Positions 12,148 to 34,700 of a stretch of DNA of 64,000 bases are shown here, piece after piece. The stretch spans positions 778,321 to 842,320 of the forward strand of contig NMRA01000049.1 of the NCBI GenBank assembly GCA_002633005.1, in the 5' to 3' direction. Below the pieces are notes generated by a model. The model was not told where the DNA came from, did no database searches, and saw nothing but the letters and a program-made list of their open reading frames with translations. The translations under genes were made by a program, and so were the position numbers. Each line of letters starts with the position of its first letter. Positions within the stretch are counted from its first letter, which is position 1. Origin of the DNA: Phoronis australis (lineage: Eukaryota > Animalia > Phoronida).

Positions 12148-13599
12148 GTCAAATTCTTCATATAAGGGGAATGTTTTACGTTTATGTCTTGCTGTACCAA
12201 ATAAGGATGTGCGTAGCTTTGTCGTGCTGGAAATGCTGACAAATTGACGAGTAGTTGACATTGAAATTTGAAACTAAAGGAAAAATGCTTTGACATTCAC
12301 AAAAATCGAACTCATTACGAACAAATAGCAAAAACACCGCTGGCGAACAGTTTTTTTTCAGTGATGGAGAAACACTTTGACCAATGCAATTTTGTCTGTT
12401 TTTCACATTCCATTCCGCTTTAAACAGAGAGTAAATTTCAAATCCATGTCCATTTAAATGTGATGAAAGTCTTTACATACTGTGCTTTGTGCACTGTTCT
12501 CCAAACCGCTTTTAGAAATTGTTTTTCAAATGTTCCATTTTTCCATGAGATGCTATCAGAAATGGGACTTTATGATTTTTACAAAAAATCGAAAAGTTTA
12601 TACAAAGGAAATGATTTAGAAAACTGTAACTGCGTTCTTGAGATTTCCTCGTGAACATTTATATCTTTAATACAATTTGACATCGTTGTTTTGCTATCAA
12701 TGTACCTTTTCAGAACACGCACTAATGGATTTGTCACCTTTACTTTACTCTGAAGAAAGTCTCGAGTTATTTCACATCAAAAGCCTTACGTATGATTACA
12801 GAAACTTTAGTCTTTCTTTTATCTTAAGTACTTTCACGCTTAGTGAAATGCAAAGCAGGATAAAAAGGGTAAAACATAAAATTGAAACTTTTCACCCTAC
12901 TAGTTGTGATGCAGCGTCTTGTGTCGTACACAGCTGAAGCAGTGCCTAGCTTTGCTTAGTGCCCATGTTCACCTGCTACCGCTGTCAGACCTTGACCGTT
13001 AGCACACATCTTCAAAACTCCTGCAGTACCTCCACGCAGCAACACAAGCGCTGGTCATTGAGGAGACCATGCTGATCAATACAGGAGCGTATTGGTCCCT
13101 TGGAAGAGCGGAGGTGGTATGACGCAGCGGCGGAAGCATTTTCACTCGAACACTTGGCGTGTTAACACTTGTGTGGGATATTGCCTATTTCCAAAAAAAT
13201 GTTGTAAGAGAAAAAACATTTATGCCTTGGGTAATCGCTATACTTTTCGAGAAAAAGATATCGAAGAAAGTTTATGGAAAATCTGAACGCTGTATGCTGT
13301 GGGTCTAGACACTTACCGTCCCAATATTAATTTGATCCAACGATTTCCTAACACCGCTTTGAGCTGGTGATGTAGTAACATTGGTCAGTGGATAACTGTT
13401 TATTTTGTCTTGTGAAATTGAACAAAAAGTATTAAAATTGCTACCCGTAAATCGATAACATTATATGCAGGCAGGTTAACTCTTCTAATAACAGGAAATA
13501 CACGTATGGAAAGGTTGATTAGTGACAGATATCAAAATTACAGGAGGCAATTTCTATGGTATAACAACATAATACGATCTAGTTAGAAAAACACAGACA

Positions 13600-15070
13600 A
13601 CCCACATAAAAACACAGAAAGCCTATTAAGTCATTAAACTTTGAGTTTGCTAGTGTGAACCAATGTGGATACTAAATTTATTAAAAAAATATTCAGATCT
13701 AAGTTAAGTGAATACGAATCATAAAGCAAAAATGAAGCACGTTGATTATTAGGTAAGCTGAAAGAAAAAAAAATATTAACACTATTCAAGGAGCCACGTT
13801 TGCAAACATTTGATACGTTTAGAAAATAGTGTTGAAACTTTTGCGAATTAAGGGGTCGTAATTGATTAAAAACTGTTTCTTTGTTTCTGGTAATAGTTGT
13901 TTTACCAGTAGATGGCGTGGATGTATGACGTTCAGATTATAGGTATCTTTTTGACAGCAAGTTTAAGCGATTGAAAACTTCCATTCATGGACTAAATCAA
14001 GATCAGTTTGCAGACGGACAGATTGTCCAGTCTTGTCTTTGGGGTATGAATAAAAGATGCAAGCATCGCCCTCAAACAAATAACATTTACAGAGAAGTAA
14101 GTCAGATGTATCATTAATGAAATTGAGAAATACAAGTGGGCCCAGAACACTACATTGAGTCATCACGGCGTTTATAAAACCTTGAGGGTTTTACTTGACA
14201 ACACACCGTCTACTCTGACCCTAAATTAGGGACAGAAAAGATGAGATCTGATCAATCTGAGCAAAGAGCCGCTAATTCCAAACATAGTTTAATTCAATTA
14301 ATATTAAGTTAATATGGGGTACAACGTCAAATGATGAAACTAAAAGACGGACCTGACATTGTTGCTTTTCAGAAACTCAGAGTGAATATTGTGGATAATT
14401 TTAATTAATTAAGAAACACTGTTTTTCCCAGACAGAAAACACAACTGCAAAGTATGCAATAGTTTGTTTTCCTGCATGTGATTGTATACAGATGAGAAAA
14501 CAATTTTAGTACAACGATTAACCTAACCCTCTCAAAAAGACGTAGATAGCGCATGATGGTCTGAGTAAGCAATAGGGTAAGGGACTTGCATAGAAGCTAT
14601 GAGTGTTGCATAGTTAGCAATTCACAGATCAATCCACGATTTGGACAGACCAGAAATGATTGATTAGCTGCAGATACTGATTAGGCAAGAGGACATCAAA
14701 CAATTCAAGACCGGCTTGATTGTCAATATCATCAACTTATTAGACTTTCTTGCGTGCATTAAAATCACCATGGATTAAATCTGGGATATCAGATCCTTCA
14801 GAGAAGAGACATATTTCCTTCTTCCAACGGGGGTTTGAGGAGACCGGTAAAAAACTCCATAACACAATTTGTTATTTCTGACAAAGATCTCCATCCTGCA
14901 GTTTGAGAGTAGTGGATGAATGGTGTTCGTGAACGATGTCATTCTTAGCAACGGTATGAACATATACATTGAGACCCCTTCCCAGGTTAATGTGATAGGC
15001 AATCGTTTGCCCTGAAATTCAGACATCATATTTTTCAGATCGTCGGGCGTCAAATTGCCGGACTTACATA
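13600..15070 (-). mobile_element. Degenerate non-LTR retrotransposon (CR1/L2-like) ORF2 relic
   Basis: QCSVLGPLVFLNFIND..CYLFEGD resembles the RT motif PQGSVLGPLLFLIYIND..LFADD (14166-13963). GVFYRSP is an AP-endonuclease motif (~14850). Boundaries approximate. Confidence 0.75.
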
Positions 15071-16610
15071 TAGTCCCAATTCAATAAATGCCGTTGACTA
15101 CAGTTTGTTTTAAAATTTCAAACCTGGAAAAGTTGTTTACTCTGGTGCTGTTGATATTTGAGAGTCAGCTGTGTTTTGCTGGGTTTGGATTACACTCAGT
15201 GTCACCACAGCATGAGAGATTTGAAGTATAATACATATTAGAGGCCCTAAAACAGTTGATGGCCTGCCAGAATAGATAATGAAGGTCATATTAACTGATG
15301 ACAACTCTTCTAAAGCTCTGTTATTCCCAGTCACCGTGACACATACGCGGCGATGCAGTACGCCATACATGTATCACCTATGGCAATTCTCAAAGAGCCA
15401 GATAATAATTACAAAAAAATGCTGCGATGAAATCGATAACCCATCTAAACATAAACATTTCAGGCAACAATAAAGCGTTGGCAAGGAATATTATGAGATC
15501 AAGTTTTGAGAGTAGAAGGTTCAATTCGAAATTCGTTTTTATCCAGGTACACAAGCGAACTGCAGGTTTAAAGAGATTCCGTGAAATACCCTAATGTCCA
15601 CTAACCAAGGAGTCACCGGAAATATAATGTAGTGGTGCTTGTAACGTTTCCTTACTATAACGTGAATTTACAATGGAAATATGGCGTACGGCATACCAAA
15701 AATCACAGCATCAAAGATCAGATACCTCTTACGTACGAAAAACAGGGTTCGAAACGGCAAAAATTCAAACTCAATTTTTGTATTCTGGCTAATTGTACAT
15801 TCTGTGGCTATTCCAAAACAATGGAATATCAATTTAGACAAGAAAATTACAAGCACCTGTTTTTGATAAAAGAACCAGCACTACTACGCGAGTTCATGGC
15901 TTCTAGTCGGACTTACGCACTCGAGGTAAAGAACTCGAGGAAACAACATTACATCGCTGGCTCTACGGGAACTTGACAATGAAGTGCACAGTGAATGGCG
16001 AAAACAATGCTTCTTAATAAGTTATCCAATCACTATGGGAATATTGCGAGGTTTTTTGAACTCAACCTTTATTCCTCTGAACTCGGCTACGCTGGGCAGT
16101 GGATGCTGGGGTGATGTTTTATAGTAATGATTAATTGTGATTTAAATGCTGTTAAGGTTTCAATTGAAATAATTTAAATACTTGATTATATTCTGTATTG
16201 TGGGCTAACTGATAATATCAGTGTGATCCTGATGTGGTCTTTGGGAAAGCGTAATCTATCTTGCAAGTTGTAGGATTTTTTTTTTTGGCAATTTGCAATG
16301 TTATCCAACAGAGCTCTGCTCAGACTTAACTATAGGTCACGAGATGTAATCAACATACGGCGTGGAGGAAAACGCATTAAATTCGGACTTAAAATATATG
16401 TTTGAGGTAATAATTTGTCACAGGAGCAACTGAAACACGATGAGAATGACATAAGTGACAAACACAATGTCTGGCATAATGCGTGAAAAGATCGTTAAAA
16501 CAGTGTAATGCATGCAGATTGTCCACTTTATCGTGAAATCTTCTGTACTCCTTAGGATGTCATGTGTTGAATCTATGAGCTGTATCGTTAAATACGTATT
16601 TATTGCAGGT

Positions 16611-19600
16611 ATGGCTAGCGATGATGCTAAGGTGTCTGGTCACGAGAACACTTACCATGGTGAAGTATTCGAAATCAGCCGAGAAGATTGTTCTGTGATA
16701 GCCGACATTGTGTCACTTTTTGGCTACAGCACAGTAGAAGCATTGGTATGTATTGCATATGCAGTACTCGTCCGCTACGAAGGTGCAGACAAACCTCCTT
16801 CTATTTCATTGGCATTTGGCTCTCCTGGACAAGATAAGCATGAAACTGACAAATCTTCTAGGTGGGATAAAGAGGCAACAATCGATGAGGAATATTCAAC
16901 AGCTCTTTTTCCATGTGATGTCAATGGCTCTATTTCAGACATGCTTTTGTCCCAGCGTCTCACGTTTGACAAATGGCCTGAAGCGCAGTCGAAGTTCAAC
17001 CGCAGCAGCCCCAGCGCATACATGGCTTTTGACTTTCCACGCGACTTCAACCGACGCAGTCAATCCAACCAGTATGACGTTAAGCTCAATTTGACCCACC
17101 AGTTCACCGGAGGCTACTCCTGTTCTATGCGACAAAGCACAAAATGCTGCGGTGATCAGGTAGCGAGATTTCGAAACCATTTTCTGACACTGCTTTCGCA
17201 AGTCCACTGTTCTGAAAATATTAACCTACTCAGCACACCAATTCAAACTCTAGAAGAGAAGCGATTGATGGCTAAGTATAACGCAACTGACAAGTTTTAC
17301 GAAAATAGTACATCACCTATGCACGAGCTTTTCGAAGAACAAGCTAGGCATCGTCCTGACGACGTCGCTATTTTTTGCGCTGAACAAAGTCTGACTTACA
17401 AACAACTGGATGAACAATCGACCAGGCTTAGTCATAAAATACTATGCGCCATGGGTAATGCGTTTTCAAGTCGTTTAGTTGGTATAAGCGTTGATGCATC
17501 AATAAATATGGTGATAGGTTTGTACGCCATCATGAAAGCTGGTTTTGCCTACGTACCGCTTGATCCAAGCTACCCCGAGAAACGACTAAGTTACATGATT
17601 GAAAACTCCGAAGTCAGTCTTGTACTTGCCAACCGATCAATGGTTGATTTACTCAGGAATTGTTGCCAGACGGTGCTTTGTCTTGAGGACGTTTTGGTAG
17701 AATCTGCCGAGGAAAGGGTATTCGAAAAACAAATTGTCAACCCCGATTACTTGGCTTACGTAATATACACGTCTGGATCCACTGGGAAGCCAAAAGGTGT
17801 GATGGTGAGTCACCGAAATGCAGTCAACACTCTTCTTGACATCAACGACAGGTACTCGGTGACAGAAAGGGACAAAATACTTTTGGTTGCGTCACTCAGC
17901 TTTGATCTATCAGTTTATGACATATTTGGCATCCTTGCTGCAGGGGGCACACTAGTCATTCCTGTTCCGGAAGTTCGCGGGGTCCCAGACCCCAAATGCT
18001 GGTTTGAAACCATGAGGAAGCACAATGTAACAATCTGGAACTCCGCACCGGCTGTTCTAAGTGTCTTAGTGGAATTTATTCTTTCTGAAGACGATTCGCT
18101 GCCTTTTTCCTTGCGGCTATGCATTCTAAGCGGCGACAGAATACCGCTGAAGCTCCCCACCCAGTTGCAGGATATGGTTCCGGGAATTCAAGTCGTGAGC
18201 CAGGGAGGTGCAACCGAGGGATCAATATGGTCTATTCATTATCCGATACAAACCGTCGACGATGACTGGACGACCATACCGTATGGCATGCCACTTTCCA
18301 ATCAAAAATATTACGTTTTAGACGAATCTCTAAATCCAGTACCTACTTTAGTTAAAGGGGAATTGTTCATAGGTGGAAGAGGTGTAACCATGGGATACAT
18401 AAACAATCCTAAAATTACAGAAGACCAATACTTACCCAGTCCTTTTGTTAAAGGAGAGCGAATCTATAAAACTGGTGATCTAGGCAGATTGCATTCTACA
18501 GGTTACATTGAATTCTGCGGAAGAATTGACAACCAAGTTAAAATACGTGGTTTTCGTGTTGAGCTGTCGGAAATAGAATGGACTTTGATTAACCAAGAAG
18601 GTGTTGCTGACGTATTAGTCCTGAAAGTCCAGGAAAGGCTCGTTGCTTACATCATCTGTGACCAAAATGTTCGTCTTGTCGAAGCCGATCTGCGACAGAA
18701 AATTGCTCTTTATCTTCCGCCATACATGGTCCCTGCGTTTTTTGTATTTATGCATTCTTTTCCTGTAACTGCCAATGGGAAAGTGGATCGGCAGGCGTTG
18801 TCTGAGATAAACTTTAGGCAAAGGAAAGACGAGGACACGGACCCTTCTTTGCCTGAAAAACACAAATTAGTAACCACACCATCCTTTACAGAGAAGGAAT
18901 ACCTTATAGTTCAAGCATGGAGCGAGGCGTTTAATGTAGCTTTAGATGAACTTTCGCCTTCATCATCTTTCTTTGAGGTTGGAGGGGATTCCATCTCTGC
19001 TATGACTGTTGTCTCTGCAGTGCGAAAAAAAGGTTTTCGGATATCTGTGCAGCAGGTTTTGGGTCACCCTAGGCTTTGTCATCTTGCCATGATAGCAAAA
19101 CCAATTGGGAGTGTTCAAAAGAGCAGGGTCGAGGCGGATGAACATTTAACACCTGTTGTTCAACTTACTCCAGCACAAACTTGGTTTTTTAGACAAGAGT
19201 TCAAAAACCCACATTTCTGGAATCAGTCGTTCCTTGTTCAACCAAAGAAAGAAATTAAAGCTTGTCAGCTGAAGGCAGCCTTAAATCGTCTGACTGCTCA
19301 GCACGAGATGTTAAGATGTAGTTACTCTCAAACATCAGATGGTGGCTGGGTACAAAAAATTAACCATATAAAAACTCCGTTTTTTAAAACCAAAACACTA
19401 GAGAACTTCGATGTGCTGAAAGACGAGTTGGATAACTTAAAATCTTCTTTAAACATACACAAAGGCCCACTATTGGCAGTTGGACTGTTTAGTGTTGGCA
19501 ACGTGCAGAAAATTTATGTAACCGTTCACCATCTAGTTGTTGACCTTGTTTCATGGCGTATTATCTTCGAAGATCTTGAAAGAATGTATGAAGGACAAGA

Positions 19601-22600
19601 GACTGAAATGCCGAGCATGTCATTTCAAAAATGGTCATCCCGATTACGGCAAATAACCTTGCCCTTAACGCGTGATGACTGGCCAAAAGACACTGAAGCC
19701 TCACCACTGCCTGTAGATGTGGGAAGTAATCTAATCCCTACGTCTAGCTCTAGAAAGTCAATTGTTACAGAGCTTGATCGCAAAGTAACCGCTGCTTTGG
19801 TGTCATCTGCAAATACTTCTTTCAAAACTAACACCAATGACTTTTTGATCGCATCTCTAATTCTAGCATACAACGAGTCATTTGGGTTGGAGAGTCTTCA
19901 AATTGACGTTGAGGCACATGGTCGAGAGCCATGGGATGACTCCGATGACATTTCAAGGACTGTTGGCTGGTTCATGACAATGTTTCCACTGACGCTGGAA
20001 ATATGTCAGGGGCCATCATATGAGAAAACTATGGAAAATACGCTAAAATTAGTAAAAGAAAAGATTAGAAATATTCCGAAGCGCGGGACGCCATTTTGGC
20101 TTTTGAAATTTTTGAATAATTCAGACGAAACGGAAGTTCAAAAGTCAGACGTACTATTTAATTACTATGGTCGATTCAATCAAATTGAAACTAAAAGTAC
20201 CCTATGGAAATTAGACGATGATTATCCGTGTGGTGATGACGAGTTTAGCTCAGATGAAAAACTGACACACAAGGTTGTCGTTGAATGCAGCCTCAAAGAT
20301 GAAAAACTCCACATGAAGATGTTTTACTGCACTGATATCCATAAACAAAAGACCATTGAGTCGTGGATGGAGAAGTGGAAAGAAAACTTAACCAATCTGG
20401 TATCATACTGTGCAATGGATGACGTCTTTGGCTACACACCATCAGACTTTCCGTTGCTAAAGTTTTCACAGTACCATTTAGATGAGCTGTTGTCTACACG
20501 ACTTCCACAATTAGACATTGCAACCGAACAATTATCCGACATGTATCCGTGTACCGCTGCGCAAGAAGGTTTTCTGTTTAGACTTTTGCAAGATTCATCC
20601 GACTACGTAGTGCACAGGTCATGTATTATCAACGGCTCAGTTGATCAGGGCAAACTGCAAACCTGCGTTTGTAAAATAATTTTAAGACACGACATCCTAC
20701 GAACGCGGTTTATTGCTGACAGATTAAATGGCTGCATGCAGATAGTACTGAAAACATTTGAGCCCCAGTGGACGATTGAAGACTGGTCTGACCTTAAAAA
20801 AAGCGAATGTTCTCAAAGAGAGATTGAATATCTACGGAATGATCGACACTCGGGGTTCAATTTCACAGAGCCAATGCTAAGGTTTGCACTTTTCAGAACA
20901 TGCAAAGAGACATCCCGTTTCATTATAACTTCCCATCACAGTATAGTGGACGCACACACGTGTTCACTGGTTCTTCAGGAAATAATTATGGCGTATAATG
21001 GCGCAGTGCTTCCGGACGCACCGGTATTTAAGGAATACGTCAAAGAATTGATAGACTATAAAACGAGCAGTTACAAAGCAAAGGGCTTTTGGAGAGAAGA
21101 ACTCAACCAGCTACCTGATCGTGGAAACCTTCGTTTCTTGCCCCCAGAGGTTCCCCAAATCGGTTACGATGTTATTCACCACTCAGCTTTGAACGGAAAG
21201 GTGGGTGAAATTCAGAAGTATGCAGAGCGACATGGGATTTTAGTTGCTGCCATGATCTGTGCATCTTGGGCTTACGTAATCAACAAATATTCGTGCGACC
21301 CAAATGACGTCATTTTTGGTTTTGTTGTGTCTGGTCGTGGGACCTCGCATATTGAAAACGTTAACAGGTTAGTTGGAGTAACTACAAATACTTTGCCCTT
21401 CAGAGTAAAGATTCATGACCATCCCGTGGTGGAGTGGCTAGAGTACATACAGAAACAGATGATGGCTATTATTGAACATGAAAAATCATCACTAACAGAC
21501 ATTCAACAGTGGTGTGCATTGAATGCAGATGACGCACTGTTTGATACACTTGTCTCGTATAATGTGATGAACAGGGATACGGAGGTTTCTCTAAAATCTC
21601 ATGGCATTGAGGTCTGCAATATCTATGACCATGAATTTACAGAGTATCCTCTGACATTAGAAATTCTTCACACAACTAATGCTATCGAAATTAAAGCTAT
21701 TTATAACAAAAATATTATCGACGTGGCAGCAGTTGTCCAAACCCTTAATCAGCTAGAAAGAGTCATGTGGTGGATAGCAACTACGTCAGAGGAAACACTG
21801 ATAAGCGAATTTGACATTGTGAGCCCTGAGGAGCATCTCGTGTTAGAAAATTTGAATCCGATAGATAACTATAAAGCCCAACTCGGGCATTTCACAGGCG
21901 TGCAACACCTGTTTGAAATAATGGTCGAACTTAATCCAAAAGAGAAAAAGGCATTAATAATGGACGATGAGTCATTAACCTATAGAGAACTCAACTCAGC
22001 AGCTAATGCTATAGCTATTCGTCTCCGATCTCTTGGCCTTTCACGTGGTGAGAAGGTTGGACTTCTCATTGATCGAGGGATACCCATGGTTGTCGGAATG
22101 CTGAGTATCTGGAAGGCTGGAGGCGCCTTTGTTCCTATAGATGCTGCACAGCCATTGGATCGTGTGTTGTTTATATTAGAGGACTGTGGATGTCGATTTG
22201 TCTTTAACTCCAGTTCCATTGACGCAAAATCGCTACCGCAAAAGCACACTTACATTTGTTTAGATAATCACTGTCTTGCTTCGTTCAAAAACGAAAATGT
22301 GAGTAATCTTGAATGTGTACATGACGCACGAGACCTTGCGTACATGATTTACACCTCGGATACAACTGGGCGACCAAAAGGTGCCATGGTTGAACATGGT
22401 GGGCTAATCAATTCATTAATGTATAAGCCTGGAGGGGTTCTCGAAGTGACTCCTCAAACAAATGTGATGCAGTACTTTGCCGTCGGATACGATGGTGCTG
22501 TCTTGGAGGTGTGGACAACGCTTTGCCATGGTGGATGTCTTTTCATTCCTTCCGGTGATTTCACAAAAACGATGAAGACAGTCGACGCTGTTGGAAGTAC

Positions 22601-24383
22601 ACCGTCTACTTTGGCTATTCTGAACCCTGACGAGTATTTTAACTTAAAACTTGTTTTTGCTGGCGGTGAGCCATGTTCTTCCGCAATGGTAAACTTATGG
22701 GGTAAAAATCGGGTTCTGTTAAACGGCTACGGACCAACGGAATGTAGTGTTATGTCCCACAGTGGTCGTCTGCAGCCGTATAAACGAATTACAGTAGGCA
22801 AGCCTCTACCAAATACCCAAAGTTACATTCTTGACAGTAATCAGCGACCTGTTCCTCCGAACATGACTGGTGAGCTTTTCATTGGAGGAGTCAATGTTGG
22901 AAGAGGTTACCACAATAGACCAGATTTGACAGAGGCTGCTTTCCTTGAAAATCCCTTCGATGCTGGACGAATTTACAAAACAGGTGATTTGGCAAGATGG
23001 TTGGAAAACGGAGAAATTGAAATCATAGGACGAATTGACCATCAAGTCAAATTACGAGGCAAACGTATCAAACTCGAAGAAATCAGGAGTGCTATGGAAC
23101 GTCTCCTGGGTGTCACACAAGCACATGTCCTTGTTCAAGATAAACAACACATCGTAGCATATGCTCTTACTTCCACTGGAGTCAGCCAAGCCGACATCCT
23201 CCTCTCCTTAAAAAAGAAACTTCCCAACTTCATGGTACCAACAGCAATATTTTGCATGAGTAATTTTCCTTTGACAGCAAATAACAAGATTGATCAACAC
23301 TCACTGCCGAGATTTGAGCCCCGAACCACTCATTACAAAGGAGCAAAACCATCTAATAATCTTGATAACTTGATTCTTAATTGTTACAGAGAGGTTGTTG
23401 ACCCAGGTTTTAAAATGGCGGACGATTTCTTTGAGCTTGGTGGGCACTCCCTTTCAGCAATGAGATTAAAATTCATGCTTGAAGACAATACAGGCTTAGA
23501 CATTTCCATGGCCGATGTAATGAACCTCACCACACCGGCTGACCTTGCAGCAGAGCTAAGCAACAGAATGTTGTTTCCACGAAAGAAAGTAAAGTCAATA
23601 TCCATAATACAAAAAACGTGTCCAGTCGAGGGAGACAAGATCATCACAGCCAAAACGTCCTGTCGACAAGAACAAATGTGTTTATTGTACGAACAAATAC
23701 CGAATAGTCCAGTGTATAATGTTACCATAGTTCTTGAATTTCATGGACTCTTGAACGTTGGATTTTTAGAACAATCCATTAAAAACATAACGACAGTGCA
23801 TAGTTCGTACCGAACATCTTTTAAGAGGTCAGGTGACAATTCATTTACTCAAACGGTCACCCCAGTCAAAGACTATAAACTGAATTTTAGGTATTACGAC
23901 TATTCTGGAGAAAGAAGTAGTTTCCAGCAGAAGGCGCGTGAGCTTCTATACAGAGAAGCTGCAACCCCGTTCGATCTTTATTCCGTACCGTTGGCTAGAT
24001 TTGTGCTAGTGAAACTTTCTAACGAAGTTCATCATTTGGGCATATTTATGCACCACGCAATCACCGACGGCGCCTCGCTTAAGATAACCATTGATCACTT
24101 AGCAGAATTCTATTCTTCCTTAGTGAATAATTGCAAGCCAAACATTCCGCAACAGAGATTAAATTATATTGATTACAGCAACTGGGAGAAGAAATTGTTC
24201 GAAAGTGGTGAAATTGAAAGACAAATACAGTTTTGGAAAGAGAAGTTGGAAAACGTTGCCAATAAATTAGACTTACCTATAGATAGAGCACGTCCTGCCA
24301 TTCCAACTTATCAAGGCGAGACTTTGTTCTTTGACATTCCGGACTTTGTCTCCGAAGAGGTGTTGAAGTGCTCTCTAGAATGA
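16611..24383 (+). CDS. Nonribosomal peptide synthetase, open 5' part (2590 aa from ATG 16611): halfC-A1-T1-E1-C-A2-T2-C(truncated by TGA)
   Basis: A1: YTSGSTGKPKG (17766), YKTGDLGR, NGKVDR. T1: FFEVGGDSISA (Ser 18990). E1: HHLVVDLVSW (19527), EAHGRE, SRTVGWF, FNYYG, TPSDFP. C: HHSIVDA (20934). A2: YTSDTTGRPKG (22350), NGYGPTE. T2: GGHSL (Ser 23448). C: HHAITDG (24051). The ORF track starts at 16512, but ATG 16611 follows a splice-acceptor-like tttattgcag. Confidence 0.93.
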   Translation: MASDDAKVSGHENTYHGEVFEISREDCSVIADIVSLFGYSTVEALVCIAYAVLVRYEGADKPPSISLAFGSPGQDKHETDKSSRWDKEATIDEEYSTALFPCDVNGSISDMLLSQRLTFDKWPEAQSKFNRSSPSAYMAFDFPRDFNRRSQSNQYDVKLNLTHQFTGGYSCSMRQSTKCCGDQVARFRNHFLTLLSQVHCSENINLLSTPIQTLEEKRLMAKYNATDKFYENSTSPMHELFEEQARHRPDDVAIFCAEQSLTYKQLDEQSTRLSHKILCAMGNAFSSRLVGISVDASINMVIGLYAIMKAGFAYVPLDPSYPEKRLSYMIENSEVSLVLANRSMVDLLRNCCQTVLCLEDVLVESAEERVFEKQIVNPDYLAYVIYTSGSTGKPKGVMVSHRNAVNTLLDINDRYSVTERDKILLVASLSFDLSVYDIFGILAAGGTLVIPVPEVRGVPDPKCWFETMRKHNVTIWNSAPAVLSVLVEFILSEDDSLPFSLRLCILSGDRIPLKLPTQLQDMVPGIQVVSQGGATEGSIWSIHYPIQTVDDDWTTIPYGMPLSNQKYYVLDESLNPVPTLVKGELFIGGRGVTMGYINNPKITEDQYLPSPFVKGERIYKTGDLGRLHSTGYIEFCGRIDNQVKIRGFRVELSEIEWTLINQEGVADVLVLKVQERLVAYIICDQNVRLVEADLRQKIALYLPPYMVPAFFVFMHSFPVTANGKVDRQALSEINFRQRKDEDTDPSLPEKHKLVTTPSFTEKEYLIVQAWSEAFNVALDELSPSSSFFEVGGDSISAMTVVSAVRKKGFRISVQQVLGHPRLCHLAMIAKPIGSVQKSRVEADEHLTPVVQLTPAQTWFFRQEFKNPHFWNQSFLVQPKKEIKACQLKAALNRLTAQHEMLRCSYSQTSDGGWVQKINHIKTPFFKTKTLENFDVLKDELDNLKSSLNIHKGPLLAVGLFSVGNVQKIYVTVHHLVVDLVSWRIIFEDLERMYEGQETEMPSMSFQKWSSRLRQITLPLTRDDWPKDTEASPLPVDVGSNLIPTSSSRKSIVTELDRKVTAALVSSANTSFKTNTNDFLIASLILAYNESFGLESLQIDVEAHGREPWDDSDDISRTVGWFMTMFPLTLEICQGPSYEKTMENTLKLVKEKIRNIPKRGTPFWLLKFLNNSDETEVQKSDVLFNYYGRFNQIETKSTLWKLDDDYPCGDDEFSSDEKLTHKVVVECSLKDEKLHMKMFYCTDIHKQKTIESWMEKWKENLTNLVSYCAMDDVFGYTPSDFPLLKFSQYHLDELLSTRLPQLDIATEQLSDMYPCTAAQEGFLFRLLQDSSDYVVHRSCIINGSVDQGKLQTCVCKIILRHDILRTRFIADRLNGCMQIVLKTFEPQWTIEDWSDLKKSECSQREIEYLRNDRHSGFNFTEPMLRFALFRTCKETSRFIITSHHSIVDAHTCSLVLQEIIMAYNGAVLPDAPVFKEYVKELIDYKTSSYKAKGFWREELNQLPDRGNLRFLPPEVPQIGYDVIHHSALNGKVGEIQKYAERHGILVAAMICASWAYVINKYSCDPNDVIFGFVVSGRGTSHIENVNRLVGVTTNTLPFRVKIHDHPVVEWLEYIQKQMMAIIEHEKSSLTDIQQWCALNADDALFDTLVSYNVMNRDTEVSLKSHGIEVCNIYDHEFTEYPLTLEILHTTNAIEIKAIYNKNIIDVAAVVQTLNQLERVMWWIATTSEETLISEFDIVSPEEHLVLENLNPIDNYKAQLGHFTGVQHLFEIMVELNPKEKKALIMDDESLTYRELNSAANAIAIRLRSLGLSRGEKVGLLIDRGIPMVVGMLSIWKAGGAFVPIDAAQPLDRVLFILEDCGCRFVFNSSSIDAKSLPQKHTYICLDNHCLASFKNENVSNLECVHDARDLAYMIYTSDTTGRPKGAMVEHGGLINSLMYKPGGVLEVTPQTNVMQYFAVGYDGAVLEVWTTLCHGGCLFIPSGDFTKTMKTVDAVGSTPSTLAILNPDEYFNLKLVFAGGEPCSSAMVNLWGKNRVLLNGYGPTECSVMSHSGRLQPYKRITVGKPLPNTQSYILDSNQRPVPPNMTGELFIGGVNVGRGYHNRPDLTEAAFLENPFDAGRIYKTGDLARWLENGEIEIIGRIDHQVKLRGKRIKLEEIRSAMERLLGVTQAHVLVQDKQHIVAYALTSTGVSQADILLSLKKKLPNFMVPTAIFCMSNFPLTANNKIDQHSLPRFEPRTTHYKGAKPSNNLDNLILNCYREVVDPGFKMADDFFELGGHSLSAMRLKFMLEDNTGLDISMADVMNLTTPADLAAELSNRMLFPRKKVKSISIIQKTCPVEGDKIITAKTSCRQEQMCLLYEQIPNSPVYNVTIVLEFHGLLNVGFLEQSIKNITTVHSSYRTSFKRSGDNSFTQTVTPVKDYKLNFRYYDYSGERSSFQQKARELLYREAATPFDLYSVPLARFVLVKLSNEVHHLGIFMHHAITDGASLKITIDHLAEFYSSLVNNCKPNIPQQRLNYIDYSNWEKKLFESGEIERQIQFWKEKLENVANKLDLPIDRARPAIPTYQGETLFFDIPDFVSEEVLKCSLE

Positions 24384-27300
24384 GGAGGTACACTTTTCAC
24401 ATCTCTTACAACAGTATACGCATTATTGATTCGTATCTACTGCCAATCAGATGACGTGGTTGTAGGAGCACTTTTCTCAGGAAGACACAATCCTTGTGTC
24501 GAAAATATAGTTGGCTATTTTGTGAATACGCTTCCTCTTCGAATTCAGTTTAATCAGAAGGCAACTTTCAGGTCCTGTTTGACGGATGTAAAGAACTTAA
24601 TGCTCGAGGTTCTTGATAATCAGGACGTGCCGTTTCAGAAAATTCTCGAGTCCTTGAACGTGCCACGTGACACGTCAAATCACCCTATTATTCAAGTTGC
24701 TACTGTGTTTCAAGAAAGTATCACAAGCAGAGCCTTGGCCGACGGACTTTCAGTGAAAGCACAAGCTTTTGAGCAGTTCACAGCAAAATTTGACTTGAAT
24801 TTAGAATTTGTAAGACATCAAAACGGGAAACTAAGTGGAGAATTTATCTTTAACACCGACATTTTCAACCGTTGTACTATACAACGAATGAGTCAACATT
24901 TGTTGTATTTGCTTAACATGTTGACAAAAAACCGAGACTCTCCATTGGCTAGCCTTGACATGCTTCCGCCGAGTCAAACTGATCTCATCAGGTCATTCAA
25001 TACATCTGGGGAATGCTGTAGACTCCACATACATCAACAGTTTGAGAAGCAAGTAGAATTGGTACCAGACAACATTGCGGTAGAGCAAATAGATCGACAC
25101 ATAACGTACAGAAGACTTAACGCCGCTTGCAACAACTTGGCGCGGAAGCTGCGCGCTGCTGGTGTTGTGCCTGATACCGTTGTTGGTCTGATAGGAGAGA
25201 GAAATTTGGAGTGCGTCGCTTCCGAGATGGCAATTTTGAAGGCTGGTGGAGCAATACTATTAATTGAAGCATCAGCTCCTCGAAATCGCATCGAATTGAT
25301 GTTGGGTGAAACCGATTGTAAAGTGGTTGTAACCACAAAAGGAATAAAACTAACTGGACTTCTTGATACATTCCGAGGAGAAATAATCTTGGTTGACGTA
25401 GAAAAGTATACTACACGTTGTAACGTTGACACCATCGAAGAAAATGACCATCAAAATTTGGAAAACGTTGTAAATTCGAGTCACCTGGCGTACATAGTCT
25501 TCACTTCAGGAACGACTGGTAAACCAAAAGGAGTCATGATTAACCATTGGGGATGCCAATGTTTAATCCCTCGGCTATGTGAAGCCTATTCCATTACACA
25601 TGGCACAAGAATGACGCATTTCTTTAACATAATGTTTGACGGTGCGTATCAGGAAGTATTCATGGCTTTGACAAGTGGGGCAACCCTGGTGCAACGAGAA
25701 GAAAATTTCTTAAATACTTTAAAACATGTTGATGTTTCGTTGACGTCCCCCTCAATTCTTTCGTCTTTGGACCCTGAAGACTTTCCCAATCTGAAGAAGG
25801 TAATAGTGGGTGCTGAAATTCTTCCACAGTCTACGGTGGCTAAATGGAAAGACCACGTGGAGCTTTATAACGAATATGGCCCATCGGAAGTAACTATTAT
25901 GTGTACCCTTGGGTTAACAAATTTTAACGAAAAGGTGACAATTGGCAAACCAATTACTAATTGTACAGTGCATATTTTAGATGGCAATCTAAAGCGTGTT
26001 CCCATTGGAGTCAAAGGGACATTGTACATTGGGGGAAACGGAATTGCAAGGGGTTATCTCAAACGACCAGACCTAACTAACAAGAAATTCGTCGACAACC
26101 CTTTCTGCATAGGAAAACTTTACAATTCGGATGACGTAGGGTATTGGACTGCAGATGGCCAGATCGTCCTTACAGGTCGAAGAGATAGACAAATCAAATT
26201 ACGAGGCTTTCGAATAGAGCTTGATGAGGTTGATCATGCTATGCGAAGTGAGAAGGGAATTTCAAATTCTGCTTGTGTCGTAAAAAATGACATGCTTGTG
26301 GGGTACGTGACACCGGACATTGGCAGTTTGGGAGTACGTGAACTACAGAAGAATCTTCAAGACAAGCTTCCCCACTACATGGTACCGTCAGTGATTGTTG
26401 CTCTATCGAAATTCCCCATGTCAGTTTCAGAGAAAATCGACTACCAACGCTTGCCTGAACCTTCTATCATCGAGTCTGAAATACTCACGGCGAAAGAAGA
26501 AATTCTCCGTAGAATATGGAGCGACGTTCTGCAAATTGAGTTATCTAGGATCAAGACTTTTGACTCATTCTTTTACTTAGGCGGCGATTCCATCTCGGCA
26601 ATGAGGCTACTCTTCCTTGGAAGAAAGTGTGGTTTACGCTTTACAGTTCAACAAATCTTTCAATCCAGAAGTCTTTCTGACCTAGCACACGTTGCAAAAT
26701 ATGCTCACAAAATGAAAGCCGGTAAGAAATGTGAACATGAGGAGGTTTCGTGACATTTTCCATTGACCCGCATCCAAGAATGGTCTTTCGACTTAAACCT
26801 TCGCAATTGCAACTGTTTTAATCAATCACTGCTTATGAAGTTATTGTTGACCTTCAAAATGCTACCAATGCACTCGCGTCATGATATCTTGCGTGCTGTA
26901 TTCTCGTTTAAACCGGGTGAACGTGCGGCGCAAGAAATAATGTCTGTAAATGATGCGCCAATGCCGAAACTGATTCGCAAGATAGAATTACTGAAGACAA
27001 ACTGGAAGCAGAGATGATCGAACAAATATAGCTAGACAAAGAAACAACCAGCAAATTACGCAGTCTCAGAAGGACACGTGGACACGACGTTACTTCGATT
27101 AATGATATTCTTCTGACATCACTCATGATAGCGTATAATGAATGTACGGGAGAATCAGTAATAACCATTGAGCAGGAATGGCATGGGAGAGAGTCTTGGA
27201 CTGACAGGCTTGATGTGTCTCGTACTGTCGGCTGGTTCACCGCCATGTATCGCGTAACGTTGTCCTCACACAATCACACAAACGGAGTACTGGATCACCT

Positions 27301-27485
27301 TGAAGAAACAAAGCGACGTCTTCGAAATATTCCTGATCACGGTAGGCTATATGCAGTAATGAAATATCTAAAGAAAGACAATTATCCAAGGTTTCACCAA
27401 AAAATTGACATTACATTCAACTACCACGGAAGTTCAACGATGAATAGACATAATAGTCTGTGGGTAGTATGCGATATCAAAAAAC
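24384..27485 (+). pseudogene. NRPS 3' continuation: rest of C3, A3, T3 and a broken second epimerase domain
   Basis: Same frame continues past TGA 24381 (CSLE*GGTLFTSLTTVYALLIRIY). A3: FTSGTTGKPKG, NEYGPSE. T3: FFYLGGDSISA (Ser 26589). Second in-frame TGA at 26751 (EEVS*HFPLTRIQEW). E2 lacks the HHxxxD segment, is frameshifted near 27000 and has TAG at 27029, but keeps EWHGRE, SRTVGWF and FNYHG. Confidence 0.9.
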
Positions 27486-27489
27486 GGAT

Positions 27490-27872
27490 TTGTTACAGTC
27501 GGAGAATTACAGTAGGATTAAATGTTCTTGGTATTATTGTAACTAATATTATTATCTCCATGATAGCAAGTAGCAGCATATATTAATAAAAACAACCACG
27601 GTTTTAAATCGACTTGACACGTTTCCGTGTCATTTATTCAAACACCATCATCAGAAGAGACAATATAGTGGCCACCTAGCTTGGCCCAGCAACAAGCAAT
27701 GAAGCACAGATACAGTCAGTTACAGGGAGTGACAATAGACCAACAATGACAACCTGTGGTGTGCCAGTTGCCTATTGAGATTGGGCTTGCACCAACTGAT
27801 GTTTAGAGCCTCACGAATTTTACGCTTCTTTGTTGTTTCTGCCTGTTCTATTATTGCAACGTCATTGAAAGA
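27490..27872 (-). mobile_element. Penelope-like retroelement 3' fragment (GIY-YIG endonuclease tail plus pLTR) inserted in the NRPS
   Basis: Minus-strand frame 27869-27720 reads FNDVAIIEQAETTKKRKIREALNISWCKPNLNRQL..., the typical PLE endonuclease C-terminus (EAxxIxxxKPxLNR). A hammerhead core follows. Left boundary approximate. Confidence 0.75.
27613..27657 (-). ncRNA. Minimal type-I hammerhead ribozyme motif (PLE-type)
   Basis: CTT-CTGATGA-TG-GTGTT-loop-GACAC-G-GAAA-CGTG-TC-AAG: conserved cores, stem II GTGTT/GACAC, stem I CTT/AAG, cleavage triplet GUC. One mismatch at the base of stem II. Confidence 0.65.
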
Positions 27873-28124
27873 GTACTGCTGCTAACGATGCCACCTTCAA
27901 CGATTTATCATGGACATGTCACATTCGCACGAGCCACCGACTTACTAAAAGATGGCCCATTGGCGGAAACGCTTGTTGAGATACAAGAGCAAGGGCGCGA
28001 CTATGGTACTCCACAATTGTGTTCTAAAACCGTGCGAGTTGTTCACGTTGACGACGACCATTACACAATGACCAGAGATGAAAGACAGATTATAGCGAAG
28101 GCTATTGCTGGAGCATCAAAGTAA
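27873..28124 (+). pseudogene. C-terminal remnant of the NRPS thioesterase domain
   Basis: PSTIYHGHVTFARA...DYG..LCSKTVRVVHVDDDHYTM..IIAKAI resembles the TE C-terminus (YxGxxTLFRA...GW...VxxVPGDHYTM, catalytic His). The GxSxG half is missing. Confidence 0.75.
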
Positions 28125-28175
28125 ATATATGCATATATACTGTATGTTTTGCATTTGCGGTAGTGAGTCAAAGAC

Positions 28176-28181
28176 AATAAA
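28176..28181 (+). promoter_or_regulatory. Candidate polyadenylation signal of the NRPS gene
   Basis: AATAAA about 50 nt after the TE stop codon (28124). Confidence 0.4.
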
Positions 28182-28344
28182 CTATAATATTGTAGTTAAT
28201 AGGTAATAGTCATGCGGTCGTCACTTTCAAACAATAGTGACAGTAGTTGTTTTCAGTAACTAAATGTATTGGAAATATAATGTACAAAGACGAAAACAGG
28301 ATGTCTGAAAAATACTTAACTGGGAGACAAAACGTAAAGGTAGT

Positions 28345-28875
28345 GATACATAAGCGGTGGCGAGTCATAATAGGTGGTGATTAGCCATGTGCTTAGTTTT
28401 ATAGAAGTGGTGATAATCCATGTATTTTGCTACATAAAAGTGGTGATGAGCAGTATTTAACTATATAAAAGGTGAGGCATATGACCGAGCCATATATTTA
28501 CCTATTCGTAAGTAGCGATGGGCCACATATTTAGCTATACAACAGTAGCGATGAGCCATATATTTAGTTATATATCAGTAGCGAGGCACATATTTGGCTA
28601 CATATAAGTGGTGATGAGGCATATATTTGGCTATACGTATAAGTGGTGATGAGCCATATATTTAGTTATATATCAGTAGCGAGCCACATATTTGGCTACA
28701 TATAAGTGGTGATGAGGCATATATTTGGTTATACGTATACGTGGTGGTGAGCCATATATTTAATTACATATCAGTAGCAAGTCACATATTTGGCAACATA
28801 TAAGTGGTGATGAGGCATATATTTGACTATACGTATACGTGGTGATGGGCAATAGTTACATACATAAGTGGTTAG
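28345..28875. repeat. Minisatellite of ~31-35-bp monomers with a 98-bp higher-order repeat
   Basis: Monomer ~gagcatatatttggctacatataagtggtgat. A three-monomer unit recurs at 28552, 28650 and 28748. Degenerate monomers resume at ~29150-29370. Confidence 0.9.
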
Positions 28876-31450: not shown

Positions 31451-31767
31451 TCAAACCGGCATGCTGTGATGTTCTGTATTATCAGAAACAGAGTCGGTGC
31501 TGAGAAAAACATGATTGGATTTTACTCCAAAGTGACCGGATCGTTGGCCAGTCCACAGAACAAACTCATACGTTGTGTTCGGCTTCAGGCCAAACACACG
31601 ATGTTCTGGGCGACAGAAGAGGACCTTCATTCGCCATGTTTTCCTGCCTGATGCTTCCCTGAACAACAGGTGGTGAGTCACGTGATCGTTTGGCTCGGCT
31701 GTGGACGTGCTGTATATGTGTATGGCTGTGGTAAATGTCCGACAATGGTCTTCACTTATTTCCGGTT
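31451..31767 (-). CDS. TRIM exon 7 (second FN3, terminal exon)
   Basis: ttttcag|PEISEDHCR...HRVFGLKPNTTYEFVLW...SNHVFLSTD...stop at 31451. Confidence 0.8.
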
Positions 31768-34700
31768 CTGAAAAGAGGTAGGAACCATTAAAGCAAAACT
31801 CATTACGCTTCGCTTTAAACCCTCATTCAAAGAAGCTAACTTTTAATTCACTTGAATTAAATTTTGACCTTGAGAGAAATGAGCCCATGGATCGCTTTTC
31901 ACGGGGTGTAATTTTAACGTGGACCCGTGAAAAACGCCCGGGCTGCTGATGAAAGCTTGTCAGCAGTTGAAAATCTGTCAAAGGGGCATTTTTGACGGTC
32001 GTATAACTACAAAAGCAAAGTATTGGCATGCAATTTGACGTCAAAGGGAAGGTGCTCCCAGCGTCACGTCTTCGGAGGTGCGAGAAATAAAATTGTGAGA
32101 GGTGAAAACTGATCGCCACCGGAGGGTGAGGGGACAATTAGCGGGCAGTTGACGAGATCTGGAGACAACCACGCGAGAGGTGGAGCCCAAAAGTGAGCGT
32201 TTGCACCCTGGCTGCTTGCCCACGGCCGGTGATTAGATGTATGGTCAGGCAATTGGCCGGGCTCCACAACTGACGTCAGTCAGCTGTATATCAGACACCT
32301 GTATAATGGTAAAATGATCAATGTGCAGAGGCGGCAACTCCCCGATCACCTAATAAAAAATCTTGAATTCTTTATCACAAATATTTTTGAAATACAACTA
32401 GAAACCTCTCAGAAATGCTTAAAATGCATCACAGAGCATCTGAATTACAGTAGCTTCGAGCCAACTGTAAGTCACTCGCATTCGTGTCTTCGGTCCATAA
32501 CTTACATGTACTCATACTTAGGGATCTAGGAGGGAGAACCTCTCTCTTTCACATGTTTAAATGCGGAGTCTCTAGATGCGGTATTTCCGCCATCTGCCCA
32601 TCGACTTAGAATGAGTGTTGTGTTATCTTTCGTAAATTACAATCTCCGTGATTGAAATGAACTGCAGGGAGTGTTTGTTTTTAAAACTGTAAAGTAATAG
32701 TGGTGTTGAGTTTGAATTAGGATTCTCGCCGTCCATACATGGCTGTTGAAACATAGGGAATGCTGCAGGCGATTAGTACAACACGGTCTGAAAATGATTT
32801 TACAAATTCCGAAACTTCACAGATTGCGCCCATGGTGGCTAGAATGGTATCACCCTTTCTCCAAGCGAATTTAAGTGTGCTACTTTTTGCGCCAGGGAGC
32901 TAGCAAACTGGCCAATGTCCTTTAATAACAGGAGTGATGAGTGAAGTAAAAAGTGGTCGTTGTCAACGCCATACACCAGTGATATGTTGGATCTGGGACG
33001 CACTTCGCAAATCAGGCCTATACTGAGGAGGGGGGGGGGCAACAACGCAAGTACACTATCTTTCCGAAACTTGACCTGACCTGACCTGACCTCGTCAACG
33101 TCGCTACATAGAAACTTTCAACGATACATACATGATCGGATTATCATGGAATATTAGATTTTGATTCACTTAGTGGATATTTATGCTTGAATAGCTCCAG
33201 TGACAGCTGATGCTACAGTAAAGAATAGTTTATGTTGCTTGTGAATAACTGATTGTGCAGGAGTGTCAGCACAAATATTTTGACACACAATGCAATAAAG
33301 TCCCATTGTGATCGTCGAAACATTGCCATTTGAACTGCACAACTTTATTTGGATCTTCACCTCATTGAAATTAGAAGTGACTATCGAACTTCAGAGGAAG
33401 GAAGACTGAACGTAATTAAGTCGTAAGTGACATTCTTAGGACTGCGCAAAATCACCATCTATTACTTTACACGAAACTTCAACTGAATAAAAATCCTCTT
33501 CCACAGCCTAAAATATAGGGGGCTCGAATTTTTCAGTATGTGGACCTTTTACTGACAAAAACGGGGGCTAAAAACGAAAAAAAAAACGGAGTACTAAGTT
33601 CAAATTGGAACCTATTTCCTATAGACTTTTGTCTCGCTTTCTCGGACTTTTGGTTTCTCTGCGGGGGACCTGTTTGCCCACTTCGCAAAATGGGTGACTC
33701 ATTCGAGCCCCCTCAAATAGGCCCCCTTGGGTGCGCGCATGCACAGTGTCTGCTGTACAGTACTGCTGGTAGCAACGGGAAAAGTCCACTGAATGAAGAT
33801 ACTGTCAATGGCAATATGGCAGGAATTACCCTAGTTCCGTGACCAAACACTAGGGAGAGTTACTAGTTGATACATTGAGATTCAAAGACAGCAAAAACCA
33901 TGTTTCACTACTGAAGACTCACGGCTTATGTTCAGAGCTCCAGGCGTCATAGTACGTATCTCAATCATAGAGGACTGTTCCCCTACCCCGGCTGCATTCC
34001 AAGCACTTAACAAACAGTGACCAATGCTGTCTAAGCGGAGATTGTCCAGCATTATGACACATCCCGCGTCATCTGGGCTCCTTGCGTCTCTCCTGAACTG
34101 ACTAGAAGGTGTCGTCACAATTATCTCCTGAAAACAGATACACAATAAATACACTGTACACCGCATGGCCAATGATAGCCAATCTTTCCTTTACATAATT
34201 CTAAGTACTTGCTTGCTATAATGTGTCGGAAGTACTGCAGGAAGGCAAAAGTAACATCCAACAGGGCTCCCGAGGGCTCGACTGTCGGAAAAAGTGTTGG
34301 GCTCTTTCGGAACAGTCGCAGCCCACAGATCGGTCACGGATCACTTTATCAACAAAAGGAGAAGTCGTACAACACCTTCCTTGACAATCGGTTAACTTAC
34401 AACGATACCAAACCGTCTTTGGCCTATTAACAGACATCAAAAACGACTTTCCCATTCAGGTCTCTGAAACAAAGTAACACCCTACCTCGGCAACTCTCAA
34501 ATGTTTGAAACAGTCTGCTAAACGGACAAGTGTGACCTATGCTTTTAGCGAGTTACAGGACTGTTAGGGAAAGATCACTCACCAAAAACGTACTAGTTAA
34601 CCTTTGATATAGACAGTACATGTATGTGTGTTTGGTTGAATCCTTGTTTCATCACTGAAGTGAGACGACAATCGAGCATAAGCAGGTGACTGAACGAGGA

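Follow-up and report, generated by a model that had tools for sequence, protein, structure and literature searches.

A 64,000-nucleotide stretch of the genome of the phoronid Phoronis australis (assembly GCA_002633005.1, contig NMRA01000049.1, positions 778,321 to 842,320 of the forward strand; hereafter the window, numbered from its first base) contains a multimodular nonribosomal peptide synthetase (NRPS) gene. A preliminary description, made from the sequence of the window, had presented it as a horizontally acquired peptide assembly line. The reading that we find reasonably probable is that the gene, broken and weakly transcribed, is one of several close copies in this genome of an NRPS with three modules and two epimerases, and that the family probably goes back to an old transfer from an early-diverging fungus. 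A fuller version is put forward only tentatively: a zoopagomycete-like fungus gave a complete epimerase-bearing NRPS, and the animal family, still under selection, would make D/L tripeptides led by D-cysteine, an unknown marine product.

The NRPS occupies two open reading frames (ORFs) placed head to tail in the same frame on the plus strand, 16509-24383 (first used ATG at 16611) and 24384-26753. Both contain AMP-binding, Condensation, and PP-binding domains (profile matches with E values down to 1e-152), and adenylation (A), carrier (T), and condensation (C) domains follow one another in modular order across the locus. Parsing by motifs and trees gives A1-T1-E1-C2-A2-T2-C3-A3-T3-E2, in which E denotes an epimerase domain, with traces of a thioesterase (TE) downstream. 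The parts of the gene are as follows.

16611 to 24383, plus strand: NRPS ORF1, 2590 amino acids, comprising the degenerate half-C, A1, T1, E1, C2, A2, T2, and the 5' part of C3, ending at a premature TGA (24381-24383).
16611 to 17255, plus strand: N-terminal segment of about 215 amino acids, probably the decayed C-terminal lobe of a C domain (weak match).
17298 to 18815, plus strand: A1, a cysteine-type adenylation domain with intact core motifs and the pocket DLYNISQIWK.
18888 to 20435, plus strand: T1 (GGDS serine) and the E1 epimerase (HHLVVDL, EAHGRE, and RTVGWF intact).
20523 to 23555, plus strand: module 2, with C2 (D-acceptor type), A2 (P-loop Gly-to-Asp at 22359, altered A4 and A8 motifs), and T2.
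23643 to 26690, plus strand: module 3, with C3 (of the L-acceptor type and interrupted by the stop at 24381), A3, and T3; ORF2 (24384-26753) ends at TGA 26751-26753.
26754 to 27586, plus strand: E2 remnants in two frames, with about 150 residues including HHxxxD deleted and a stop at 27015-27017.
27500 to 27800, no strand assigned: host repeat of high copy number, lying after the E2 pieces and before what is left of the TE, with approximate bounds.
27885 to 28124, plus strand: C-terminal remnant of a thioesterase, with the His present and the Ser motif absent.

Domain, motif, and tree parsing agree on a multimodular enzyme with two epimerase modules, as had been proposed. T1, T2, and T3 each keep the carrier serine (GG[DH]S). 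The top three matches of E1 in the PDB were gramicidin S synthetase 1 (the best), bacitracin synthetase 3, and PvdL; the alignment covers the C-terminal region of the GrsA construct, its E domain. A tree built from 147 C and E domains groups E1 with 48 E domains. In that tree, C2 lies among C domains mostly placed after an E (35 of 50), and C3 lies among C domains not placed after an E (0 of 45). These positions, of the D-acceptor and L-acceptor types, respectively, support for the intact ancestor the D-L-D pattern suggested earlier. The full order is a degenerate half-C, A-T-E, C-A-T, C-A-T-E, and TE, and its C subtypes fit D-L-D. Of the half-C to TE order originally given, the stretch A-T-E-C-A-T-C-A-T-E stands, but the two ends are weak. 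The half-C reached only E = 0.008 against our own C/E profile and had no Pfam match (its single-sequence fold, with a predicted local distance difference test score of 33, was not used as evidence). The TE is a remnant covering about 65 of 274 positions of our own TE profile (27885-28106; E = 3e-4), with no catalytic serine in that alignment and no Pfam match. The coding frame from 16611 to 26750 is free of introns, as had been claimed. One further feature lies just upstream.

16586 to 16609, plus strand: acceptor-like splice site two bases 5' of the ATG, resembling the SLC25A35 acceptor and possibly belonging to an intron in the 5' untranslated region.

Acceptor-like sites with a nearby ATG occur 16 times in the window, so that this one is not rare enough to count, and no splice joint was seen at the site. 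Directly after the TE remnant, a tandem array of units of about 33/98 bases extends over 28374-28854.

The window copy is a pseudogene, unable to encode the full assembly line. The first in-frame stop, read from the window sequence, is the TGA at 24381-24383 inside C3; the second, the TGA at 26751-26753 after T3, lies inside a contig (26564-27062) with 0 differences in DNA runs X1 and X2 (about a fifth of each run was read). Asp replaces Gly in the P-loop of A2, the A4 and A8 motifs of which are also altered, and the A7 motif is altered in A3. Besides the loss of its HHxxxD-containing segment, E2 has a further stop and a frameshift. The repeat between E2 and the TE remnant has a summed contig depth of 11,000 to 26,000, versus 50 to 190 in the gene, and loose contig ends lie at 27555 and 27736. 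In RNA of another sample, the bin at the E2 junction has a depth of 4; of 54 reads, 3 aligned only in part, and neither a joint nor an indel is listed. Two stops, a dead E2, and a TE remnant mean that no full assembly line comes from this copy; it has neither an unbroken frame with intact catalytic motifs nor a release domain with a catalytic serine, and the claim of a working line making a peptide of at least three residues fails for it. The copy appears to have decayed from module 2 onward.

The window copy is weakly transcribed. The RNA check proposed in the preliminary description gave sense RNA in two of three runs: the signal is sense biased in 16 of 16 gene bins in run X5 and in 15 of 16 in run X6, at about 0.4 to 0.8 reads per kb per million. 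Among reads over the 3' half, 17 of 29 in one run and 32 of 54 in the other are at least 99% identical to the window. These reads, the intact motifs of module 1, and the 2590 codons of ORF1 could be taken to mean that the copy still acts, either as a shortened A1-T1-E1 enzyme that makes a D residue or passes it on, or in trans, through complementation of a paralogue. We consider this improbable, because the A2 P-loop is broken, ORF1 contains no release domain, selection on A2 is relaxed, and expression stays below 1 read per kb per million.

The existence of the NRPS and its seat in animal DNA are confirmed. A contig of 2,814 bases (13952-16765) with 0 differences from the window and a depth of 50.6 runs from the left flank to 154 bases into the ORF, the depths of unique flank and gene are alike (50 to 59, with gene-internal contigs at 58.9), and a contig at 27982-28579 crosses the right end of the gene. 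With the animal SLC25A35 and TRIM genes on its flanks, the earlier view of an NRPS embedded in an animal chromosome was borne out. The notion of an assembly chimera, or of DNA from a fungal parasite or symbiont, draws on the fungal identity of the nearest relatives, on the absence of a contig over the whole stretch, and on the half depth (18 to 25) of contigs over the 3' half. However, the left junction is crossed without mismatch at nuclear depth, the right end is crossed as well, a high-copy host repeat lies within the gene, RNA was found in two other samples, and half depth fits one haplotype; a chimera or foreign DNA is therefore extremely unlikely. Contamination was likewise rejected. In run X1, identical contigs over window positions 22523-28579 lie at half depth, compared with 50 to 59 for the 5' flank. 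From this half depth, only one haplotype seems to carry the broken 3' half, and the other differs from it or lacks it.

Among the sequences searched, the nearest relatives of the gene appear to be not bacterial but NRPSs of Basidiobolus, Dimargaritales, and a chytrid. Basidiobolus meristosporus ORX93211.1 (P0355) was the best BLAST match, among 270 NRPSs, for all six large domains (A1, E1, C2, A2, C3, and A3) and for none of the three T domains, and it is colinear with the window NRPS at 34% identity over 3,331 amino acids. A1 is sister to the first A of ORX93211.1 (FastTree support of 0.987, 0.999, and 0.997 in trees of 169, 236, and 383 rows; 92 under an IQ-TREE mixture model), E1 is sister to its first E (0.979), C3 is sister to its only L-type C (0.975), and C2 falls within an all-fungal group (0.953). 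A2 and A3 belong to a clade whose other members all come from Basidiobolus, Dispira, Dimargaris, and the chytrid Irineochytrium (0.99, 0.993, and 0.995; 99 by the Shimodaira-Hasegawa-like approximate likelihood ratio test). Adding 67 domains from prokaryote genome loci and 147 from metagenome loci left these placements unchanged. The non-animal origin that had been suspected thus gains likelihood from the trees of A, C, and E domains, which give fungal nearest relatives.

Discrete characters were also compared. A shared deletion shortens the spacing between motifs A4 and A5, which is 80 in both A2 and A3 and 80 to 81 in 13 of 14 fungal domains; such spacing occurs in 0 of 741, 0 of 47, and 0 of 111 non-fungal domains (899 in total, with one value of 56 among the 741 left uninspected). 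The E active-site variant D-L-V-S-W, with Leu, is present in E1, in all six matched fungal E domains, and in 4 of 240 other E domains. In the fetched proteins, an E comes after 1 of the 35 cysteine-type A domains, namely, the Basidiobolus one. The approximately unbiased (AU) test rejected the grouping of 15 fungal domains as one clade without the domains of the window (P = 0.0096), and in the 383-row tree the chytrid falls outside and the animal inside the zoopagomycete group (0.957). The gene thus shares with the ORX93211.1-type family, which is defined here and is not a curated one, the short A domains, the fungal grouping, and a cysteine-type A1 followed by T-E. A donor among early-diverging fungi is likely, although not proven, on these comparisons.

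Wider searches were made with several parts of the protein. Among the best 120 of 1,433 matches to T1-E1-C2, at 25 to 32% identity, three were named proteins from fungi and none was named as animal. A scan of 1.84 billion representative proteins with the segment from the N terminus to T1 (best 150 of 221,949 matches, 13 of the 150 named) was dominated by long bacterial NRPSs and was informative only after per-domain rescoring. Scanning prokaryote genomes with A1 gave 33 loci, with a best full-length identity of 44%; a metagenome scan with E1 gave 0 of 53 stretches; and one with an A1-E1 alignment gave 76 loci, none of them in the fungal-animal clade (16 of 64 parts covered). An atlas search with A2 returned generic bacterial A-domain clusters.

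These data bear on the idea of parallel transfers, in which an unsampled bacterial lineage, such as a symbiont, separately supplied early-diverging fungi and this animal. Most Basidiobolus NRPSs have bacterial best matches (Tabima et al. 2020, PMC7466969), the sister pair of A1 and its Basidiobolus counterpart nests within a bacterial cysteine-type clade, and bacterial sampling is finite. Nevertheless, the short spacing is absent from all 899 non-fungal domains, the best plasmid match to A2 is only 38.8% identical, versus 43.4% for Basidiobolus, and the animal domains fall inside the zoopagomycete group with the chytrid outside. We therefore regard parallel transfers as unlikely.

Vertical inheritance, from an NRPS of the animal-fungal common ancestor that was lost in most lineages, would accommodate the low identity (34%) and the host-like base composition (a G+C content of 42% in the gene and 39 to 40% in the flanks). 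Scattered animal phyla carry NRPSs, an echinoderm-mollusc clade exists, and an ancient origin has been raised (Suring et al. 2023, PMC10531068). Against it stand a 10-kb coding frame without an intron next to spliced genes, the lack of a named animal among the best 120 of the 1,433 matches, the rejection of fungal monophyly by the AU test, and the domain-for-domain pairing with a single Basidiobolus gene, so that descent from the common ancestor appears quite unlikely.

Turning back to the family, the reads contain more than one version of the gene. Contigs of about 89% identity cover parts of E1 (54 of 508 and 55 of 486 positions differing), and contigs of 94 to 98.5% identity cover A2 to E2, both at nuclear depth; these paralogues were judged from reads, in which alleles and paralogues are not separable. 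Of the 49 differences listed in the gene (40 of the 164 in one table plus 9 in-gene rows of another), 32 are silent, versus an expected 22 to 28% (P < 1e-7; ratio of nonsynonymous to synonymous rates of about 0.15 to 0.2). The silent share is 18 of 21 in C3 and A3 but 8 of 19 in A2 (Fisher P = 0.007), and two motif sites of A2 have the conserved residues, Phe and Glu, in the other copy. A2 of the window copy thus shows what these counts suggest is relaxed selection. The mostly silent differences between copies indicate that a working copy probably exists or did until recently, and the pattern would fit a working family with a decaying member. The preliminary description had missed these conserved paralogues, together with the fungal kinship and the cysteine-type A1, and had only hinted at the pseudogene state.

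The best single-domain PDB match of A1 is BmdB (388 bits), with the pocket motifs aligned. The A1 pocket (DLYNISQIWK) resembles those of its bacterial neighbors (DLYNLSLIWK) and of Basidiobolus (DLYNFSLIWK), being identical to that of ORX93211.1 A1 at 8 of 10 positions. A1 belongs to the cysteine-type clade, and its predicted substrate is Cys or a similar small residue. Bacterial cysteine-type A domains typically follow a cyclization domain. The pockets of A2 and A3 read DGLGFGGVMK and DGQLIGEIMK; residues 2 and 3 of the product are left uncalled.

Most probably, an ORX93211.1-type fungal gene entered an ancestor of this animal, lost two modules or never had them, ended in a TE, took on the host base composition, and multiplied into a small family. 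The action of an intact copy can be outlined from its domain order and the known chemistry of NRPSs. A host phosphopantetheinyl transferase (PPTase) would prime the three T domains. A1 would activate cysteine or a similar small residue, which E1 would convert to the D form; C2 would couple this D residue to an L residue from A2, C3 would couple the growing chain to the residue from A3, E2 would epimerize it, and the TE would release the product. The predicted product of an intact copy is thus D-Cys(-like)-L-Xaa-D-Yaa. We infer, rather than observe, the direction of transfer, an intact working paralogue, the substrates, the product, and the PPTase. A defensive role for the product would be a guess by analogy with the cyclic D/L peptides of Basidiobolus and with rotifer NRPSs.

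Several points weigh against the reading preferred here. The AU test group was chosen after inspection of the tree, and both of the large searches rank by summed score, so that a closer relative with few modules could be missed. The tree rows included no animal, Dikarya, oomycete, or protist NRPS, and the sequences of Suring et al. 2023 were not among the matches listed by the searches. Identity is low (30 to 47%) and the eukaryotic branches are long, the partner of A3 is unstable (the chytrid in two trees and Basidiobolus in two others), and nesting inside the fungi has a support of only 0.35 in the 236-row tree. No intact paralogue was seen end to end, the silent bias could be old, and among the 40 of 164 differences listed the state of the stops in other copies is not visible. 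In RNA run X7, none of the 16 gene bins has any read depth. DNA runs X1 and X2 represent one sample, possibly the source of the assembly itself, and no single contig joins the NRPS to the TRIM exons or spans the whole stretch. At 2 of its 10 positions the A1 pocket departs from the bacterial cysteine code, and over this region its best match in the PDB is 6lta, a methylserine-activating enzyme.

Among known systems, ORX93211.1 resembles the window gene in its N-terminal stub of about 200 amino acids, in a cysteine-type A1 followed by T-E, in short later A domains, in the same E variant, and in having one L-type C. It differs in having five A and three E domains, D-D-L-D-L by our parse, and no TE in the record, whereas the broken window gene ends, after three modules, in the remains of a TE and lacks the five modules of an ORX93211.1-like cyclopentapeptide synthetase. 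Luo et al. 2020 proposed ORX93211.1 as the synthetase of the basidiosins, which are cyclopentapeptides, a link that was not genetically confirmed (via Tabima et al. 2020, PMC7466969), and Tabima et al. equate it with model 387529, described as having four modules, N-methyltransferases, and a TE (PMC7466969). Our parse, with five A and three E domains and no methyltransferase-sized gap or TE, does not match that description, and the product link of ORX93211.1 is doubtful for this reason. The NRPS expansion in Basidiobolus is partly bacterial in origin (Tabima et al. 2020, PMC7466969), and Basidiobolus cyclopentapeptides contain both D and L residues (PMC10964425; also PMC10478498 and PMC11376311). 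The NRPSs of Dispira parvispora, Dimargaris xerosporica, and Irineochytrium annulatum (P0002, P0103, P0020, and P0370) bear epimerases, belong to the same A, C, and E clades, and have the short A4-A5 spacing, but they are uncharacterized, have other module orders, and show no cysteine-type starter in these records. With the I. annulatum protein (P0370, 7,565 amino acids), a large chytrid NRPS of this clade that has three epimerase domains, the family reaches beyond Zoopagomycota.

The statement that animal cases are few understated the prior art, since 199 likely animal NRPS clusters have been listed, including those of echinoderms, molluscs, and lancelets (Suring et al. 2023, PMC10531068). 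That work lists seven Phoronis australis NRPS regions of 27 to 97 kb with the remark "contamination unlikely," and it reports an echinoderm-mollusc clade and scattered phyla, raising an ancient origin with loss, from a tree of animal sequences only (PMC10531068). For the phoronid rows, the relevant parts of its text and table give no domain order, donor, integrity, or product (PMC10531068). Like those clusters, the window gene lies in an animal scaffold and is one of several per genome, and the locus may be one of the seven regions. Animal NRPSs as such are thus already catalogued (Suring et al. 2023); the fungal kinship of this one is new. We found no report in the open literature, to which the search was largely confined with subscription papers mostly outside it, that links an animal NRPS to the ORX93211.1-type fungal family.

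The ACV synthetase of springtails and Plectus has three modules, an L-L-D pattern, and its cysteine-type A in second place (PMC10531068). It is like the window gene in its three modules, a cysteine-type A, and a terminal E-TE, but in the window the cysteine-type A comes first with its own E and the pattern is D-L-D. ACV synthetase was rejected as an identity, since the Aad-Cys-Val order with a single terminal E does not match a gene with E in modules 1 and 3; no ORF of the size of isopenicillin N synthase is present in the window. The Cy-A(Cys)-T modules of BmdB (bacillamide) and PchE (pyochelin) resemble A1, but the window gene has no heterocyclization domain and an epimerase follows instead. 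A thiazoline-forming Cy-A(Cys) NRPS was likewise rejected, with only a 215-amino-acid stub without a Pfam match before A1, as was the Ebony or schistosome type (a single A-T with no regular C), the window having three modules with C and E. Compared by description, bdelloid rotifer NRPS/polyketide synthase (PKS) genes and mollusc FmtATR are similar as foreign NRPS genes domesticated in animals; the rotifer NRPS/PKS genes match overwhelmingly bacteria (Nowell et al. 2024, PMC11258130), and FmtATR is a single module with a reductase (Venugopalan and Schmidt, bioRxiv 2024.11.12.622736). For priming, the springtail NRPS has been suggested to rely on the host PPTase (Suring et al. 2023, PMC10531068).

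Two animal genes were identified downstream of the NRPS.

31451 to 45611, minus strand: spliced TRIM gene with RING, B-boxes, and coiled coil, convergent with the NRPS; the last, FN3-like exon is unconfirmed.
53446 to 57836, plus strand: SLC25A35, intact, with three exons (53446-53823, 55112-55330, and 57528-57836) and GT-AG introns.

The TRIM gene has a RING/B-box exon and a coiled-coil exon with splice edges. It had been described as a convergent spliced gene 3.3 kb from the NRPS; the gene is real and convergent, but the exon at that distance, an FN3-looking one at 31451-31822, has no Pfam match, and the nearest confirmed exon lies 9.7 kb away. A search with a TRIM exon gave a single match, uninformative as to the host. 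The named top matches of SLC25A35 are all animal, no relative more than 67% identical was seen among 50 compared, and the protein forms a long branch outside all sampled groups in a 51-row tree (quick search). The host comes from an invertebrate lineage with little coverage among annotated proteomes, which accords with a phoronid. Upstream lies a high-copy element at 9832-11930, whose inverted repeats are long and imperfect. It contains part of a THAP domain (10977-11291; Pfam E = 5e-5), and RNA is abundant on both of its strands. Short minus-strand frames at 13963-15373 look by eye like decayed reverse-transcriptase pieces of a long interspersed nuclear element and have no Pfam match. A dispersed repeat of 790 bases is present in two copies, 85% identical, at 1885-2655 and 42562-43345.

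The origin and function of the scattered animal NRPSs are unclear, and the phoronid ones have been a riddle (Suring et al. 2023, PMC10531068). For one animal NRPS family, the present analysis offers a testable answer, namely, a donor among early-diverging fungi and a predicted D-L-D product that begins with a cysteine-type residue. The value lies in the NRPS family, the window copy itself being dead, and the family bears signs of gene birth and death under selection. It ties an animal gene to an uncharacterized fungal family that has been proposed for the D/L cyclic peptides of Basidiobolus, and the A4-A5 deletion could be used as a diagnostic screen of all animal genomes. Animals are known to make D residues in peptides mainly by post-translational isomerases, and an epimerizing assembly line beyond ACV synthetase would add a further animal route to them. 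If the fuller version is true, a D-peptide assembly line would have passed from a fungus to an animal, and an undescribed marine natural product would await discovery.

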